Of a stretch of DNA of 64,000 nt, positions 8,840-16,295 are shown in pieces. Source of the stretch: a virus (Duplodnaviria; Caudoviricetes). A model generated the notes under the pieces. That model saw only the letters and a program-made list of their open reading frames with translations. It was not told where the DNA came from and did no database searches. Numbering within the stretch: the first letter of the stretch is position 1; every line of letters starts with the position of its first letter. The position numbers and the translations under genes were made by a program. The stretch spans positions 1-64,000 of the IMG/VR virus record IMGVR_UViG_3300036762_000065. One strand, given 5' to 3'.

Positions 8840-9019
8840 ATGATGAAAAAATTTATAGAATGGCTAGAGCGTTATTTTATGGCAGATATTTCTGAATACG
8901 AAGAATGTCCATATTGCACAAACGTTGAATTTGTAAGTTTCTGTTGCCACTGTTCAGGTAGCGGTTACGTTAGAATAGCAAACCAAGAGGAGATTGAAAA
9001 TGACACAACGCATGACTAA
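8840..9019 (+). CDS. Small zinc-finger protein (59 aa, below the ORF-track cutoff)
   Basis: MMKKFIEWLERYF...CPYC...CCHCSGSGYV; preceded by TGTAAATT and a GAGAG SD-like sequence. Confidence 0.65.
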   Translation: MMKKFIEWLERYFMADISEYEECPYCTNVEFVSFCCHCSGSGYVRIANQEEIENDTTHD

Positions 9020-9611
9020 AGGTGCTTCTACAGTAAAGGACTTAGCTAAAGCTAGTGCTGACTACAACCCGCGAACAATCACAGAAAGAGAACTAAACGG
9101 ACTTAAACATTCGTATGATACGTTTGGGGATTTGAGCGGTATCGTGTTGAACATACGTACAGGTACTCTTGTATCTGGACACCAGCGCATAAAAACACTT
9201 AAAGGAAAGAAAAGTCGTATTGAAAAACATCCGCACACAGATAGCTACGGTACGGTTGCCACAGGCTGGGTTGAATACAAATCTGCTAACGCTGACCATA
9301 TATCAAAGATTCCCTATCGTGAGGTAGACTGGTCTGACGGTAAAATGGAAAAAGCAGCTAACATTGCTGCTAATGCTCATGGAGGGCAATTTGATAAAGA
9401 CAAGCTCGGTGCTTTACTAGAAGAACTAGAGGATGCAACGTTCGATATAGAACTAACAGGACTAGACCCTTTAACCCTGCGTAGCCTTAGAACGGCCAAA
9501 TCTGAAGGCGATAGTGTTGATCGTGAAGAAAAGCACGAAGGCTTCAAAGAATACGATGAAAACAGTTTTGAACTTGATAATTGTTGTCCACGTTGTAAAT
9601 ATAAGTGGTAG
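9000..9611 (+). CDS. ParB/Srx-like domain protein with C-terminal Zn ribbon
   Basis: ADYNPR...LVSGHQR ParB-N motifs; terminal CPRCKYKW; GAGGAG SD before ATG 9000. Confidence 0.85.
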   Translation: MTQRMTKGASTVKDLAKASADYNPRTITERELNGLKHSYDTFGDLSGIVLNIRTGTLVSGHQRIKTLKGKKSRIEKHPHTDSYGTVATGWVEYKSANADHISKIPYREVDWSDGKMEKAANIAANAHGGQFDKDKLGALLEELEDATFDIELTGLDPLTLRSLRTAKSEGDSVDREEKHEGFKEYDENSFELDNCCPRCKYKW

Positions 9612-9614
9612 ATT

Positions 9615-11912
9615 ATGTCTAAATTAATAGAGTACAATAGCACTGAAATAAAAGCAGGTACTGGTGTTGCACGTAATCATTGTGCAATAGCAGAGCCTCT
9701 TGTTGGCGGGAAGTCTTTAGTTCCTTCAATGGAGCGTATTAACAAAAAGAAAAAAGACTTCACTGCAATGAGTTTTTTTGCAGGCTGCGGTGGTGCGTCT
9801 ATCGGAATGAAGATGGCAGGCTTTAATGTATTATACGCGAACGAGTTTATTCCTGCTGCGCAAGATACGTATAGACTAAATCATCCAGATACACTACTCG
9901 ATCCTCGTGATATACGAAAAGTGTGTCCTAAGAAACTGTTGAAAAAGCTTGGACTTAAGCGTGGAGAATTAGACCATCTCGATTTAAGTCCTCCTTGTTT
10001 TGCACCAGGTACAATGATACACACAAATCATGGATTTAAACGCATAGAAGATGTTGTTATAGGAGATAATGTTCTTACTCATACACAGGAGTTTCATCCT
10101 GTGTATGATACAATGGTTCGTAACTACTCAGGCCGCATGTATCGTCTAAAAACTATGGGCTCTATGACAACAGAGGTTACACCAGAGCACCCTTACTATG
10201 TGCGAAGAAAGAAAGGTATAAATAAATACTCATTAGATAAACCTATATGGGTAGAAGCGCAAAATCTACAGAGAGGTGATTATGTTGGTATAGCTGTAAA
10301 TCAGCTAAATGATAACAATCCTTGGTGTGGATTCTCAGACATACGAGAAAAAAGACCAGAACTTCGTGCATATAGATACAAATGGAAAAGTACTCACGTT
10401 GTATATAGGGAGTTAAATGCTTTGCCTATACATCTTAACGATTTTTGGTGGGTAGTAGGCAGATTTGTCGGAGATGGTTGGATAACACATAAAGATCAAC
10501 CAGAACATAGAAATCCAAGGAAACGTGTTAAGAGATTCGTTCGTATTTGTTGCGATAAAACAGACGGTGGAGTAGAACTTCGCGCTATAACAAGTCGATT
10601 GGACGCTTGTAATTTCTCCTATAAAATTTTGGAACGTAGAACGGCATATAGAATCTCTTTATTGAAATCCAGAGAGCTATGTGAATTTCTTTTGCAATTT
10701 GGACAAGGCGCTAAGAATAAGAGAATTCCAGGTTCAGTCCTCTCTATGCCTAAGAGTCTGCTATTGCGATTTATACAAGGTTATATATCTGCTGATGGTA
10801 GTCGACGTGGGTACGGTAAATTCAGATTCAATACTGTCAGTAGGGAATTAGCTATAGGCATAGTACACTGCATCAATAAAGTTTTTGGAAAATCTAGTGG
10901 GAAGATAGGATGTATATCGTCTGAAAAATTGATCAAATATGGATGCGGTGTAATAGAAGGTAGAAAAGTAAACGTATCCGATCGTTACGGTGCTTCATTT
11001 AACTTATTCTCCGATCCAGCGCGCGAACAGTTTATACAAGAAGAGGCTAATGGCATAATATGGGTTCCAGTACGCTCTATTGAGGAATTTCAATATAAAG
11101 GACGTGTATACAATATGTCTGTTGAGAACGATGAAACATACACGGCAAACAATTTAATTGTTCATAACTGTAAAGGCTTTTCTACAGCAGGTGTGCAAGA
11201 AGACGGTTGGAATAAAGAAGTAATGTATTCTGATGGTGTTTATCAACGAGTAGATGATTTGTTTGGTGAAGGCGTCAGGATGTTGATAGGACTAAAACCA
11301 AAAACGTTTCTTGCTGAAAATGTTGCTGGCCTTATCAAAGGTAGTTCGCGCGGTATGTTTATCGAAACACTTAACGATTTTAAAGCATGTGGCTATCGCG
11401 TTAAAGCAGCATTGATCGACCCTGTTGTGTTAGGAGCTCCACAGACGCGGGAGCGTATGATATTTATAGGAGTACGTAATGATCTAAAGATGGACCCTGT
11501 ATTTCCTACGTTGAAAAAACGCACTCCTGTTCGTGTTACTGATGTACTTCCGCATATACGTCTGATAAAAACAAAAGTTCGCAATATGCTAACATATGTT
11601 CCTGCAACAAGACCCAGCCCTACAATAGTAGCCTCAGATTTTGATACAGGGGAGAACGCTAGTTTTTCTTGTGGAGGTTGGTGCGAAGACGACCTAGGAC
11701 GTAGACGTAAATACAATCTATCTGAATTACGCAGATTGATGTGCTTTCCAGACGACTTCAAACTTAGCGGTACCCCTCGCCAACAGTGGGAAAGACTAGG
11801 TAGAAGTCATTTACCTCTTCAAGTATACCACTTAACAAAAGCTGTCCGCACAAACATACTAGAAGTTTACTACGACAGCAAAGGCGCGGATTATTCAGAC
11901 ACAATTAAATGA
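9615..11912 (+). CDS. DNA cytosine-C5 methyltransferase-family enzyme (probable carboxymethyltransferase), intein-containing
   Basis: Motif I FFAGCGG, IV PP|CKGFS, VI ENV, VIII QTRER, IX ELRRLMCFPDDF, and X LGRS in place of the usual GNS/GNA. Confidence 0.93.
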   Translation: MSKLIEYNSTEIKAGTGVARNHCAIAEPLVGGKSLVPSMERINKKKKDFTAMSFFAGCGGASIGMKMAGFNVLYANEFIPAAQDTYRLNHPDTLLDPRDIRKVCPKKLLKKLGLKRGELDHLDLSPPCFAPGTMIHTNHGFKRIEDVVIGDNVLTHTQEFHPVYDTMVRNYSGRMYRLKTMGSMTTEVTPEHPYYVRRKKGINKYSLDKPIWVEAQNLQRGDYVGIAVNQLNDNNPWCGFSDIREKRPELRAYRYKWKSTHVVYRELNALPIHLNDFWWVVGRFVGDGWITHKDQPEHRNPRKRVKRFVRICCDKTDGGVELRAITSRLDACNFSYKILERRTAYRISLLKSRELCEFLLQFGQGAKNKRIPGSVLSMPKSLLLRFIQGYISADGSRRGYGKFRFNTVSRELAIGIVHCINKVFGKSSGKIGCISSEKLIKYGCGVIEGRKVNVSDRYGASFNLFSDPAREQFIQEEANGIIWVPVRSIEEFQYKGRVYNMSVENDETYTANNLIVHNCKGFSTAGVQEDGWNKEVMYSDGVYQRVDDLFGEGVRMLIGLKPKTFLAENVAGLIKGSSRGMFIETLNDFKACGYRVKAALIDPVVLGAPQTRERMIFIGVRNDLKMDPVFPTLKKRTPVRVTDVLPHIRLIKTKVRNMLTYVPATRPSPTIVASDFDTGENASFSCGGWCEDDLGRRRKYNLSELRRLMCFPDDFKLSGTPRQQWERLGRSHLPLQVYHLTKAVRTNILEVYYDSKGADYSDTIK
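9996..11168 (+). mobile_element. Intein (391 aa) with LAGLIDADG homing endonuclease
   Basis: Begins CFAPGT; block B TPEHP; GRFVGDG and GYISADG LAGLIDADG motifs; ends VYNMSV...VHN|C. Confidence 0.95.
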
Positions 11913-11920
11913 GGTGATGT

Positions 11921-12187
11921 ATGGAAGCTTCATGCGTTGAGCAGTTTGAACTTTCGGAAATAAAGGATTTAATGGATCATATTGATCTGGTTGATAAACG
12001 AATTATCGCGTTGCTGAAAGTACGTATAGGTTTAAGTTTCGATATGGATGTAGCTAAAAAACAATTAGGAGTTAACTGTAACGATGTTAATCTAAGACAT
12101 ATTAAACTTAGAACGTATAGAAGCCTAGCCGTTAAATACGATATTGATCCTGATATAGTTGAGAGCGTATTTAAAGCATTAGTGTAA
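11921..12187 (+). CDS. Chorismate mutase (AroQ / CM_2)-like protein
   Basis: IDLVDKRIIALLKVR...AKKQLG...D...DPDIVESVF pattern; some catalytic positions diverged. Confidence 0.75.
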   Translation: MEASCVEQFELSEIKDLMDHIDLVDKRIIALLKVRIGLSFDMDVAKKQLGVNCNDVNLRHIKLRTYRSLAVKYDIDPDIVESVFKALV

Positions 12188-12190
12188 ATA
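12183..12190 (+). promoter_or_regulatory. TGTAAATA motif upstream of the cmoA-like gene
   Basis: Recurrent motif at gene starts. Confidence 0.5.
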
Positions 12191-12223
12191 AATAGTGTGT
12201 TAAATAATTCAGGTGATAGTAAA

Positions 12224-12976
12224 ATGACTGTATTCAATAGCAGCGAACTTTGTGATATAAATATTGATAAGGTTGTTCCAAAAGAAAAATGGGAATTTGA
12301 CGGTGCTGTAGCAGACTGTTTTGATAATATGTTATCTAGGTCTATTCCTCTATATGATCAGATGCGAACTCTGTGTTATAAAATAGGAAGACGCTTTATA
12401 ACAGAAGAGTCTGCTATTATGGATTTAGGTGCCTCACGAGGAGAAGCCTTACGTCCTTTTATAGAAGACAATACAGCCAAGTCTTTTATAGCTATCGAAA
12501 TAGCAGAGCCTATGCGTAAAGTTCTGATAGAGTTATACGGAAATAATGATAAGTTTGTTTTAGCCGACATACCTTCAAGTGATCTACGTTCGTTTGATTC
12601 CGCTAATTACAAAGGCCAACATACTAATTTAATCTTATCAATTTTAACATTGCAGTTTACTCCTATTGAATATAGGATGCATATTATTCAAGCTATTTAC
12701 GACTCTCTTGAAGTAGGAGGAGCTTTTCTTTTTGTAGAAAAGGTGTTAGGAACCTCTCCTGTTATTGACAAAATTTTAGTTGATAACTATTATGAGTTTA
12801 AGAATGCCAACGGATATTCATACGATGACATACAGCGAAAGAAAGCCAGCTTAGAGGGTGTGTTGGTTCCTGTGACAGCCTCTTGGAATGAGGATATCTT
12901 AAAAGGAGCAGGCTTCAAACACGTTGATTGCTTCTATAGACATTTGAACTTCTGTGGATGGATTGCTATAAAATGA
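12224..12976 (+). CDS. cmoA: Carboxy-S-adenosyl-L-methionine synthase (CmoA-like)
   Basis: WEFDGAVADCFDNMLSRSIPLY, DLGASRG, LTLQF, EK and FKNANGYS...KKASLEGVL match CmoA signatures; ATG 12224 with AGGTG SD. Confidence 0.88.
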   Translation: MTVFNSSELCDINIDKVVPKEKWEFDGAVADCFDNMLSRSIPLYDQMRTLCYKIGRRFITEESAIMDLGASRGEALRPFIEDNTAKSFIAIEIAEPMRKVLIELYGNNDKFVLADIPSSDLRSFDSANYKGQHTNLILSILTLQFTPIEYRMHIIQAIYDSLEVGGAFLFVEKVLGTSPVIDKILVDNYYEFKNANGYSYDDIQRKKASLEGVLVPVTASWNEDILKGAGFKHVDCFYRHLNFCGWIAIK

Positions 12977-13848
12977 GCAGGTCTGAAACTACCAATAAAA
13001 TTGGACAAATACGCAGACAAAAAGTCCTTGACTCTTATGCAAGGGAGCCTAACATAAGGCAAGCCCTTCTTGATACTATGGGATTTATACCGAAAGATCA
13101 GAAAGTGTGTGTCTTCTTGTCTGGAGGTATAGATAGTCATGTTATTCTTTTTGCAGCTATGGAGTCAGGACTCGATGTGAGCACTACGTCCTTTACACTA
13201 GACACTCACGATAGTACAGACTTTAAAATAGCGAAAGCGACCTCAGAAGAGTTCAAGTTAGACTTCAATCCTGTTCGTTTAGACTCATCTGAAAAGCACT
13301 TAAAGAAGTGGGTTCGTTACGCCACAGGTACTTTAGGACTTGATTCTAAAAGTTCTATAGAATGTACGTGGCCACTTTATGTAACCATTCTTGCAAACAA
13401 AGACAAGAAGCATTTGATGATGGGGCTTGGAGGCGATTCTTATTTCTTACTAGCCAAAGGCTACTCTATGCACTGTAGAGATATGGTTGCAGAAGTAAGA
13501 AATAAAGCATTCAGAAGATCATTGATACAGAATTCTGTCGTAAAGAATTTAGCTTTCCGTAACGAACAAGTTGTACATCTGCCGTTTTTTGAACTCGGTA
13601 GGGTGTATACAGAACTTGAAAACACAACAGATTACAGTAAACTTAATACGCCTCAAAAATCGTACTATCATAGTGCTTTTCCTGAGTTGCGTAAAAGGTG
13701 TAAAATAAGAGCACACCAGAACTTCCAGTTAGGAGATACCTGCATATCTAAAAACTTCAGCGATAAACTTCTCAACTCGGATTGGAATACTAGAAACAGT
13801 AAAGCAATTATAGCAATATATAATGATGTTATTGCTAATAAAGTTTAA
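12973..13848 (+). CDS. Asparagine synthetase-like ATP-dependent amide ligase (no glutaminase domain)
   Basis: PP-loop LSGGIDS, GLGGDSYF and LPFF; ATGA overlap with the cmoA stop. Confidence 0.82.
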   Translation: MSRSETTNKIGQIRRQKVLDSYAREPNIRQALLDTMGFIPKDQKVCVFLSGGIDSHVILFAAMESGLDVSTTSFTLDTHDSTDFKIAKATSEEFKLDFNPVRLDSSEKHLKKWVRYATGTLGLDSKSSIECTWPLYVTILANKDKKHLMMGLGGDSYFLLAKGYSMHCRDMVAEVRNKAFRRSLIQNSVVKNLAFRNEQVVHLPFFELGRVYTELENTTDYSKLNTPQKSYYHSAFPELRKRCKIRAHQNFQLGDTCISKNFSDKLLNSDWNTRNSKAIIAIYNDVIANKV

Positions 13849-13868
13849 ATTTATTTACAACTTAAAAC

Positions 13869-13876
13869 TGTAAATA
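13869..13876 (+). promoter_or_regulatory. AAAACTGTAAATA promoter-like motif
   Basis: Recurrent motif; inverted copy at 13852-13859. Confidence 0.55.
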
Positions 13877-13948
13877 ATTTAATAGATGCACATGCTTATG
13901 TGTGTTAACCTACCGCCACAATGTGGCTAACCTAAAGAGGAAACTCAA

Positions 13949-14053
13949 ATGAAAAATTATGAGCCAGAAATGACTTCTAAGTTCGATGAGCCAGAAGAGC
14001 CAGAAATGACTTCTAAGTTCGATGAGCCAGAAGAGCCAGAAGTTGTTGCCTAG
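13949..14053 (+). CDS. 34-aa acidic repeat peptide MKNY(EPEMTSKFDEPE)2EPEVVA
   Basis: AAGAGG SD, its own promoter-like motif and terminator; 36-bp direct repeat at 13961-14032. Confidence 0.7.
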   Translation: MKNYEPEMTSKFDEPEEPEMTSKFDEPEEPEVVA

Positions 14054-14073
14054 TTTTAATTAGACAACTAGCT

Positions 14074-14098
14074 AAGGCGGGCAATTGCCCGCCTTTTT
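14074..14098 (+). terminator. Rho-independent terminator
   Basis: AAGGCGGGC-AATT-GCCCGCCTT followed by TTT. Confidence 0.85.
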
Positions 14099-14115
14099 AG
14101 TTATATAGGTTTCTT

Positions 14116-14742
14116 ATGAAAAACTTAAACATAATACCTTTGATGTTAAAACCGAAATCAATATGTCTACGTGAAGGTGACGCTCAGATATACTCTTTAC
14201 AAAATTTTCTATCTGAAAAGGTGTGTAAAGAGCTTATAGAAGAGTCAAAACATTTTCTTACACCTAGTAAGGTAGGTTCGGAGTACGGGGTAATTGTCGA
14301 TAGTTCTGTTAGGACAAGCTCGACAGCAAAGTTAAGTGAGGTTTCTGATAATCCTATGATTGCCGAAGTTCATAGTATGTTATTCGACCTATACGGATAC
14401 TTTGAATTGCCTGGGGATCCTGTCTCTGTACATAACTATCAACTTGGCCAAGAGTTTAAAGATCACCACGACTTTCACGACACAGAAAAAAGAAAAGAAC
14501 GTATAGCAAAAGAAGGTCAACGTACTTGGACATTCGTTGTTTACTTAGATGAAGATTTCGAAGGCGGCGAGACTGTATTTCCAGAGCTTGATCTTACTGT
14601 AGTACCGAAGACAGGACAGCTACTTGCTTGGAACAACCTGTCTTCTACAGGTGAAGGTAATACAAAGACACTACATAGATCAAACCCTGTAACAAAAGGA
14701 GAAAAGAATATCATAACCAAATGGTTCAGATCGTTTATATGA
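14116..14742 (+). CDS. 2OG-Fe(II) oxygenase, prolyl 4-hydroxylase-like
   Basis: NFLS...RTS, Y.LGQEFKDHHD (HxD), RTWTFVVYL, GGETVFP, TLH and KNIITKW. Confidence 0.9.
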   Translation: MKNLNIIPLMLKPKSICLREGDAQIYSLQNFLSEKVCKELIEESKHFLTPSKVGSEYGVIVDSSVRTSSTAKLSEVSDNPMIAEVHSMLFDLYGYFELPGDPVSVHNYQLGQEFKDHHDFHDTEKRKERIAKEGQRTWTFVVYLDEDFEGGETVFPELDLTVVPKTGQLLAWNNLSSTGEGNTKTLHRSNPVTKGEKNIITKWFRSFI

Positions 14743-14758
14743 TGTTCGATAAAACACT

Positions 14759-15199
14759 ATGAATCCTTTTACGCAATTAAAAACACAAGTTAGAAGTGCG
14801 TTAGAGAAAGAAACTAAGCTTTCTCCAGAAGAACGAAAACAACACCAATGGCAATTCCTTACTACAGTAAATGGAGTCACTTATATTGTAGGTAAAGGCG
14901 GCGCTAATACAATGTTCTATATGATAGGCAAAGGCGAACGTAAGATATGTATGCCGAAAGAAATGCTCGATGTTATAGGAACATGGGGAACATCTAAGTA
15001 TCCTATGTACGCTATATGCAAGAAGAAAGGAAGATACACACATGGACCAAATCCTTCATTAGAAGCAATGTTTGATGAGGATCCTGCTGTAGGTAGTTTC
15101 CTCGTAGGGTTTACTAACGATGGGCGTGTTCATCGTCTTTATAAGTATGTTAGTGGACTTATGGGATCGGAATGGGTAGAATTTAAAGCGAGCAAATAA
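14759..15199 (+). CDS. Hypothetical protein
   Basis: 146-aa ORF, TAATG-coupled to the next gene. Confidence 0.75.
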   Translation: MNPFTQLKTQVRSALEKETKLSPEERKQHQWQFLTTVNGVTYIVGKGGANTMFYMIGKGERKICMPKEMLDVIGTWGTSKYPMYAICKKKGRYTHGPNPSLEAMFDEDPAVGSFLVGFTNDGRVHRLYKYVSGLMGSEWVEFKASK

Positions 15200-15948
15200 T
15201 GCGTATAATAACTTGGAATGTAAACAGTGTTAGGGCACGACACACTCATGTTGAATCGCTGCTACATAACGAGAAGCCTAGTGTTTTATGTATGCAGGAA
15301 ACCAAGGTTGTTAATAACGAATACCCGGACTTCCCTAGCTATTCAGGAAGCTGTGTTGCTAATGGGCAGAAATCATACAATGGAGTCTCTGCCCATTGCA
15401 TTAAGCCTCCGTCCGATGTTATTGTTTCTCCTTGGCAACACGGAGAAAAGAGAGTTCTTGCTTTCACATACAACAATATAAGATTTATAAATCTATATGT
15501 TCCAATGGGAGGCAAAGATGAAAACGCTTACTCTGAAAAACTATTGTGGTTAGACAACCTTACGTTTTTTATACTCGAACAAAAGCAAGTGTATAAACAT
15601 GTTTGTATTCTAGGTGATTTTAATATCTGTCCTACAGATGATGATGTTTGGGATCCTGTTGCATGGAAAGGCAGAGTAACCTGTACAAAACCGGAACGTG
15701 ATTGGTTTAAAAATATTATAGCCTGTGGTTTTAAAGACACTCTAAAAGAACACACGGATTCAAGTGACTTTACTTGGTGGAACTATAGACGTAATGGATA
15801 CCAGCGCAATCACGGCTTAAGAATAGACTTTGTTCTTATGACCGACGATCTTGCGTCTTGTGTTGTACGTGCGGAAGTGCTTACACAATATAGGGAGATG
15901 GAAAAACCTTCAGACCATGCGCCTGTACTCGTGGAGATACGAAAATGA
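15199..15948 (+). CDS. xth: Exodeoxyribonuclease III / AP endonuclease
   Basis: TWNVNS, QETK, GQKSYNGV, GDFN, FTWWNYR, GLRIDF, SDHAP. Confidence 0.95.
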   Translation: MRIITWNVNSVRARHTHVESLLHNEKPSVLCMQETKVVNNEYPDFPSYSGSCVANGQKSYNGVSAHCIKPPSDVIVSPWQHGEKRVLAFTYNNIRFINLYVPMGGKDENAYSEKLLWLDNLTFFILEQKQVYKHVCILGDFNICPTDDDVWDPVAWKGRVTCTKPERDWFKNIIACGFKDTLKEHTDSSDFTWWNYRRNGYQRNHGLRIDFVLMTDDLASCVVRAEVLTQYREMEKPSDHAPVLVEIRK

Positions 15949-16295
15949 CAATATTTGTACTTTATCTAAACCCTATTACCGCAAACGCTGAACGTTATAT
16001 ACCTGTTGTGTCGGCCCCTACTGCTGAAAAATTACAAGACTTGCTAGAAGGTGAGTTGTGCGCTGACTATAAAGAACCTGGAATTAATAGTAATGGAGAT
16101 AACGTTGTATTTTCAAAGTGTTTTAAGAAAGGCGGCTTACTTGAAAACTTTAACGCTCCTACACTTAACGGTAAGAATTGTTTTGACGTTAACGAAGGTA
16201 TAATAGAGTGTGTCAGTAGAGAAGATATCGTACAACAGCATTTAGCCGAGTTGCGTATGTATGATAACCATTTCCTTAATGTACCTTCTATATAG
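15945..16295 (+). CDS. Hypothetical protein
   Basis: 116 aa; ATGA overlap and GGAG SD. Confidence 0.75.
   Translation: MTIFVLYLNPITANAERYIPVVSAPTAEKLQDLLEGELCADYKEPGINSNGDNVVFSKCFKKGGLLENFNAPTLNGKNCFDVNEGIIECVSREDIVQQHLAELRMYDNHFLNVPSI

Follow-up and report, generated by a model that had tools for sequence, protein, structure and literature searches.

A CmoX-type DNA cytosine carboxymethyltransferase precursor predicted in a jumbo phage, with an arginine in motif X and an intein at the catalytic cysteine

CmoX of phage S-B43 (SpCmoX) was described by Yang et al. (Nat Commun, December 2025) and makes 5-carboxymethylcytosine (5cxmC) from carboxy-S-adenosylmethionine (carboxy-SAM or Cx-SAM), which is produced by the phage CmoA (PMC12783734). 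In the 1.9-Å structure of SpCmoX with Cx-SAM (8YF3), Arg350, which replaces Asn304 of M.HhaI, directly contacts the carboxymethyl group. The wild-type enzyme accepts only Cx-SAM, the R350N variant is inactive with both cofactors, and SpCmoX recognises only GC. In the same study, the carboxyl group is linked to glycine by CmoY, which is homologous to asparagine synthetase, and 5,615 candidate CmoX proteins were collected from IMG/VR, UniProt and MGnify by the rule 'SPPC plus Arg350' (PMC12783734). In bacterial enzymes, an engineered lysine at the corresponding position (N374K in M.MpeI, N377K in M.MedI) gives carboxymethyltransferase activity, and the M.MpeI lysine forms a salt bridge with the carboxylate (PMC12015181); what the original prediction for the DNA studied here had stated about M.MpeI N374K agrees with that paper. 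Here we describe an open reading frame (ORF) at 9615-11912 of a virus sequence, IMGVR_UViG_3300036762_000065. The window, i.e. the whole stretch of 64,000 nucleotides that was analysed, is the first 64 kb of this complete 241,706-bp record with terminal repeats. Judged from its sequence, the ORF very probably encodes the precursor of a CmoX-type DNA cytosine C5-carboxymethyltransferase. Its parts are as follows:

9615..11912, + strand: CmoX precursor of 765 amino acids, an intein-interrupted C5-cytosine transferase homologue (PF00145, E 1e-35; 8YF3, E 7e-41)
9615..9995, + strand: N-extein, residues 1-127, with motif I FFAGCGG and the contact residues E77/F78 and D99, ending with SPP of motif IV
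9996..11168, + strand: intein of 391 amino acids, residues 128-518 (Pfam Intein_splicing and Hint_2, a weak LAGLIDADG_3 match, TIGR01443 and a PI-PkoII match)
11169..11912, + strand: C-extein, residues 519-765, with ENV of motif VI, QTRER of motif VIII, a variable region of 83 amino acids and motifs IX and X
11781..11816, + strand: motif X, QQWERLGRSHLP, in which Arg730 equals SpCmoX Arg350 and M.HhaI Asn304 by alignment

The motif-X segment QQWERLGRSHLP was obtained by translation of 11781-11816 on the + strand and comprises residues 723-734 of the ORF. The canonical Gly-Asn of C5-methyltransferases is absent, and GRS is found instead of GN(A/S), as had been predicted. The coordinates and residue number given for the arginine were exact: the AGA codon at 11802-11804 encodes Arg730 of the 765-residue precursor, which is Arg339 in the spliced enzyme of 374 amino acids.

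When searching the PDB with phmmer, 8YF3 was the best match of the precursor (E 7e-41), and in the third aligned stretch (query 698-744 against chain 318-364, ungapped) Arg730 was placed on chain residue 350. CmoX of S-B43, translated from MN018232.1, has S95-P96-P97-C98 and R350, in agreement with the publication. BLASTP of the joined exteins against this protein gave 34% identity over 356 columns (E 4e-56) and paired Arg730 with Arg350 again. The cofactor contacts are kept as well, since F55, E77, F78 and D99 correspond to F25, E47, F48 and D69 of SpCmoX in the BLASTP alignment. It had been proposed that a natural arginine at this place binds the carboxylate of Cx-SAM and marks a carboxymethyltransferase. 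This is supported by the alignment of Arg730 on Arg350, which contacts the carboxymethyl group in 8YF3, and the residue-level support that had been claimed holds through a homologue that has been both solved and mutated (R350N inactive).

A profile built from 32 homologues matched 8YF3 with an E-value of 6e-86 and aligned end to end with M.HhaI and M.HaeIII (E 4e-34 to 4e-40), two enzymes built on the same ten motifs and using the catalytic Cys in the same way. In this profile the family motif 'ERLGR' falls on 'KQFGN' of M.HhaI, so that 'GR' corresponds to G303-N304 and the Arg column to N304; the 'GR' column also falls on 'GN' of M.HaeIII. The two enzymes differ from the window enzyme in having Asn (N304 in HhaI), in using SAM, in the length of their variable regions (106 and 117 amino acids, respectively) and in having no CmoA partner. 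The original prediction had further equated the arginine with N374 of M.MpeI. The placement was obtained for HhaI N304 by the profile, but a residue pairing with M.MpeI N374 was not: by sequence, the family profile aligned with 4DKJ over positions 57-252 only, and the fold comparison with 4DKJ, which spans motif X (model 44-360 against chain 8-393, Z 25.7), comes without residue pairs. The equivalence to N374 is therefore drawn from the HhaI N304 link and the literature and not from a direct sequence alignment. M.MpeI N374K and M.MedI N377K resemble the window enzyme in having a positively charged residue in place of the motif-X Asn, which goes along with carboxy-SAM use and 5cxmC formation. 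They differ in that their lysine is engineered, SAM methylation is retained, the specificity is for CG, and the proteins are bacterial and distant in sequence.

To obtain a clean single-domain structure search, the window enzyme was represented by P0002, an intein-free metagenomic allele. It reads SPPCKGFS, and its motif X is the same as that of the window enzyme, with which it shares 81% identity across the C-extein. The best fold match of its AlphaFold2 model (mean predicted local distance difference test score, pLDDT, of 88) was 8YF3 (Z 34.1, root-mean-square deviation 2.5 Å, 291 residues), followed by HaeIII (Z 30.0), HhaI (29.4) and M.MpeI 4DKJ (25.7).

The remaining catalytic motifs are also present. 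PF00145 matches the ORF in two pieces with the intein domains between them, and TIGR00675 matches as well. SPP of motif IV lies at residues 125-127 and the catalytic Cys is Cys519; they are brought together by splicing, although a literal SPPC is already found in the precursor because the intein itself begins with Cys. ENV is located at 568-570 and QTRER at 610-614, including the conserved Glu and Arg for contact with N4/O2 of the cytosine, and the ENV Glu and QxRxR residues are essentially invariant across the family alignment (121 sequences). Megablast of 9000-16000 against the phage collection returned no match, so that searches at the protein level were needed.

Compared with SpCmoX (S-B43, A0A514ABG7, 8YF3), the window enzyme thus has the fold, SPPC, the motif-X Arg and the F/E/F/D contacts in common, and both are linked to CmoA and an asparagine-synthetase-like ligase. 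Besides the 34% identity, they differ in the intein at the catalytic Cys, the variable region (83 versus 115 amino acids) and the gene order, which is cmoX, AroQ-like gene, cmoA, cmoY in the window and cmoA, cmoY, cmoX in S-B43. The window comes from a jumbo phage of 242 kb that has PaBG and Erwinia jumbo phages as relatives, and not from a cyanomyovirus like S-B43. Closer relatives are PaBG_00177, gp46 of Erwinia phage Alexandra and gp275 of Yersinia phage fHe-Yen9-02, which show 44-52% identity over the C-extein and carry ERLGR in motif X. Most of them bear the annotation of a hypothetical protein or a plain cytosine methylase. As in the window, these phages have a ParB-like gene upstream and encode CmoA and a CmoY-type ligase in their genomes. 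Unlike the window, the inspected stretches of the three phages harbour no AroQ-like gene between cmoX and cmoA.

The 120 homologues that scored best in a database search with the C-extein were then aligned with MAFFT. SPPC is present in 120 of 120 sequences, and the motif-X column contains R in 117 and N in three; Arg730 is not a chance substitution. CmoA is encoded in all seven Arg-bearing genomes that were checked, namely the window, PaBG, Alexandra, fHe-Yen9-02, Yoloswag, the 225-kb Tara contig L008 and the 245-kb JGI contig L011. The Asn-bearing (ERLGN) sequences P0103, P0111 and P0117 belong to the same clade, and two of them were placed on contigs (L013:8001-9176 and L014:1720-2856). Neither CmoA nor a CmoY-type ligase was found near P0117 (17 kb) or P0111 (11 kb), both in small-phage contexts on incomplete contigs. 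The co-occurrence of Arg and CmoA runs in the expected direction in a small sample (seven Arg, two Asn). The Asn-bearing members without a nearby cmoA suggest that methyl and carboxymethyl transfer have been switched naturally within one lineage.

These data bear on whether the protein could be an ordinary SAM-dependent C5-methyltransferase that makes 5-methylcytosine, with the arginine tolerated as a lineage-specific residue and CmoA serving some other end, for example the modification of tRNA or the depletion of SAM. In favour of this are the matches to PF00145 and TIGR00675 and the three close relatives with the canonical Asn, which indicate that the scaffold can be a methyltransferase. However, wild-type SpCmoX has the same Arg and accepts only Cx-SAM, Arg occurs in 117 of the 120 relatives and tracked CmoA in the nine genomes and contigs examined, and the 2025 paper describes no tRNA partner of the CmoB type in phages of this kind (PMC12783734). 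We therefore regard an ordinary methyltransferase as very unlikely.

The intein is inserted between SPP and CKGFS, so that Cys519 is both the +1 nucleophile of splicing and the catalytic Cys of motif IV. Splicing is needed to give the 374-residue enzyme. The intein starts with CFAPG and contains block B TPEH (189-192), two LAGLIDADG-type motifs and VHN|C at 516-519. PF14890 matches with 44.2 bits (cut-off 35.8), and Cys1, the TxxH of block B, the terminal His-Asn and the +1 Cys are those of a class 1 intein. PaBG and the closest metagenomic alleles, which are up to 81% identical, have no intein at this site. Alexandra gp46 (709 amino acids; L003:4642-6771) and fHe-Yen9-02 gp275 (692 amino acids; L004:4666-6744), both annotated as hypothetical proteins, likewise carry an intein at SPP|C. 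In the window intein and in these two relatives the Asp of block F is replaced by Asn. Inteins go unmentioned in the 2025 study (PMC12783734). A 650-residue primase-like gene with a LAGLIDADG_3 match was also seen in the 245-kb JGI relative (L011:791-2743, - strand), pointing to a further intein or homing element among these phages.

It could be argued that the gene is disabled, with an intein that splices inefficiently, little or no active transferase and the arginine as a relic. SPP and Cys519 lie 391 residues apart, so no activity is expected before splicing, and the Asn in block F of this intein and of the Alexandra and Yen9-02 inteins would fit such a defect. On the other hand, Cys1, TPEH, the terminal His-Asn and the +1 Cys are all in place, the frame is open over 765 codons, and the exteins retain all catalytic motifs and share 76-81% identity with intein-free alleles. 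The occupation of the same intein site in two cultured phages also speaks against a dead gene, which makes this explanation highly improbable.

The variable region was predicted to be short, suggesting a short recognition sequence and dense modification. The first part was confirmed: 83 residues separate R614, with which QTRER ends, from the motif IX Arg (R698), compared to 106 in M.HhaI, 115 in SpCmoX and 117 in M.HaeIII. The second part found no support, as SpCmoX with its longer region recognises GC only; the length of the variable region says little about the site. The recognition sequence could not be predicted from the variable region, which BLAST and HMMER align with that of SpCmoX only with long gaps, and since the two regions are not alignable, GC specificity should not be assumed here. 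The window contains 2,623 GpC sites (about 22% of its cytosines), a number that is relevant only if the site is GC. One stretch of the region, PSPT(I/L)xAS, is common to the window enzyme and SpCmoX. That another group is transferred from a different SAM analogue, or that the substrate is not cytosine in double-stranded DNA (e.g. RNA or single-stranded DNA), is barely credible: compared with SpCmoX, the variable region is shorter by 32 residues and unaligned, so that substrate recognition is not established, but the operon encodes no SAM-analogue synthase other than CmoA, the Glu and Arg residues that contact the cytosine and PSPT(I/L)xAS are shared with SpCmoX, and a ParB-like DNA-binding partner is encoded upstream.

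The genes next to the transferase, in the order of their positions, are:

8994..9611, + strand: ParB-like protein, immediately upstream of cmoX (phrog_620, E 9e-30; 51% identity to PaBG_00176)
11921..12187, + strand: AroQ-like protein (chorismate mutase type II) of 88 amino acids, between cmoX and cmoA (PF01817, 32.0 bits against a gathering score of 27)
12197..12976, + strand: CmoA, carboxy-SAM synthase (TIGR00740, E 7e-39; PDB 1IM8, E 9e-27; 4GEK, E 6e-23)
12958..13848, + strand: CmoY-type ATP-dependent amide ligase, an asparagine-synthetase C-domain without the glutaminase domain (PF00733, E 2e-11; phrog_26038, E 4e-108)
13949..14053: EPE-repeat micro-ORF of 34 amino acids, between ligase and oxygenase
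14116..14742: prolyl-hydroxylase-like 2-oxoglutarate-Fe(II) oxygenase
14759..15199: protein of 146 amino acids (phrog_23597)
15199..15948: exonuclease III

A ParB-like gene is also located upstream of the transferase in L003, L004, L008, L011, L014, L015 and L016, and ParBc proteins are frequent neighbours among published CmoX loci, being found in 1,660 CmoX contigs (PMC12783734). In PaBG, the ParB-like gene, CmoX, CmoA, the 146-residue protein and the ligase all lie in one block.

CmoA is encoded two genes downstream of the transferase and is 29% identical to the biochemically active CmoA of S-B43. We also considered whether it is disabled by a Lys at the position of E. coli Arg199; this was dropped, as the aligned position of the active S-B43 CmoA is not Arg either. 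For the AroQ-like protein, the weak PDB matches were all chorismate mutases. In a weak HMMER alignment with 1YBZ (E 0.1), the catalytic Arg of helix 1 (E. coli Arg11 type; 'LRKEID') corresponds to the Met of 'LMDHID', which provisionally suggests that this Arg is replaced by Met. Searches of the phage collection and of a set of 5.8 billion proteins returned only the protein itself. At the equivalent place in the marine contig L008 there is an ORF of 105 amino acids, which gave no chorismate mutase match by Pfam or BLAST and does not support conservation of the AroQ-like gene. The availability of prephenate has been flagged as needing study, with no mention of chorismate mutase (PMC12783734), and our literature search found no paper that links chorismate mutase, phage and Cx-SAM. 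By its predicted function the AroQ-like gene, whose protein is divergent, may feed prephenate to CmoA.

The ligase is 27% identical to SpCmoY (E 2e-14) and 57-60% identical to the ligases of Yoloswag (gp17), Y3, Salmonella phage Sen-NF (annotated as asparagine synthase) and two IMG/VR contigs. In all of these loci the ligase is followed by the oxygenase (43-48% identity). A micro-ORF of 34-49 amino acids with (D/E)-P-(A/E) repeats lies between the two genes in five of the six loci, the exception being Sen-NF. The relatives at the equivalent place are DPA-repeat ORFs of 35-49 amino acids, found at L015:4980 and L016:4979 (the two IMG/VR contigs), L017:4967 (Yoloswag gp18) and L018:4934 (Y3). 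Neither the micro-ORF nor the oxygenase was found alongside the PaBG-type, L008-type and L025 ligases. The conservation of the trio points to a tentative further possibility, namely that the enzyme is a standard CmoX but that this lineage takes the carboxymethyl handle beyond the 5cxmC-glycine amide. Ligase, micro-ORF and oxygenase might then build a hydroxylated, amidated or peptide-derived cytosine adduct that has not been described, perhaps with prephenate for CmoA coming from the AroQ-like gene.

The 146-residue protein is encoded beside the cmo genes in PaBG, Yoloswag, Y3, L008, L011, L015, L016, L020, L021 and L025, and was seen in every jumbo-phage cmo locus of the group that we examined. 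No copy was detected in the stretches fetched for S-B43, Sen-NF and L019. It has about 90 representative relatives. Its AlphaFold2 model (pLDDT 95.5) consists of two helix-plus-four-strand repeats. A convincing structural counterpart was not found: Foldseek gave no match at E <= 0.001, and the best VIA matches, YkuJ (Z 6.8) and Pur-alpha (Z 6.0), cover half of the model only.

By analogy with SpCmoX, carboxymethylation would proceed as follows. Given the intact splicing residues, the 391-residue intein would be removed and SPP joined to Cys519, giving the 374-residue enzyme with a complete SPPC. Cys519 would attack C6 of a flipped-out cytosine, the C5 carbanion would take the carboxymethyl group from carboxy-SAM, and beta-elimination would release 5cxmC. 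Arg730 would pair with the Cx-SAM carboxylate, so that the enzyme selects Cx-SAM over SAM. From its homology, the phage CmoA is expected to make the cofactor on the spot from SAM and prephenate, and the adjacent CmoY-type ligase would then amidate the carboxyl handle.

Several points weigh against this assignment. The identity to the characterised SpCmoX is only 34%, and the window protein is read by homology. Its activity would depend on splicing, which is predicted from motifs alone. The modelled chain is that of the close allele P0002, not the window's own, and the model is ligand-free. CmoA scores 133.9 bits, below the TIGR00740 equivalog cut-off of 193.3, although TIGR00740 is still its best NCBIfam match. 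Finally, the missing cmoA of the Asn-bearing relatives carries little weight, as their contigs are incomplete.

The mechanism and the signature are already published (PMC12783734), and the window enzyme is a further example and not a discovery. It indicates that a motif-X Arg in place of Asn is a reliable marker of natural DNA carboxymethyltransferases in a jumbo-phage lineage as distant as this one (34% identity to the single enzyme characterised so far). The published system is extended by an intein that needs to splice at the catalytic Cys before modification starts, by a different ligase subtype with conserved companions, and by a phage gene with a possible bearing on the supply of prephenate, a question posed by the 2025 paper.

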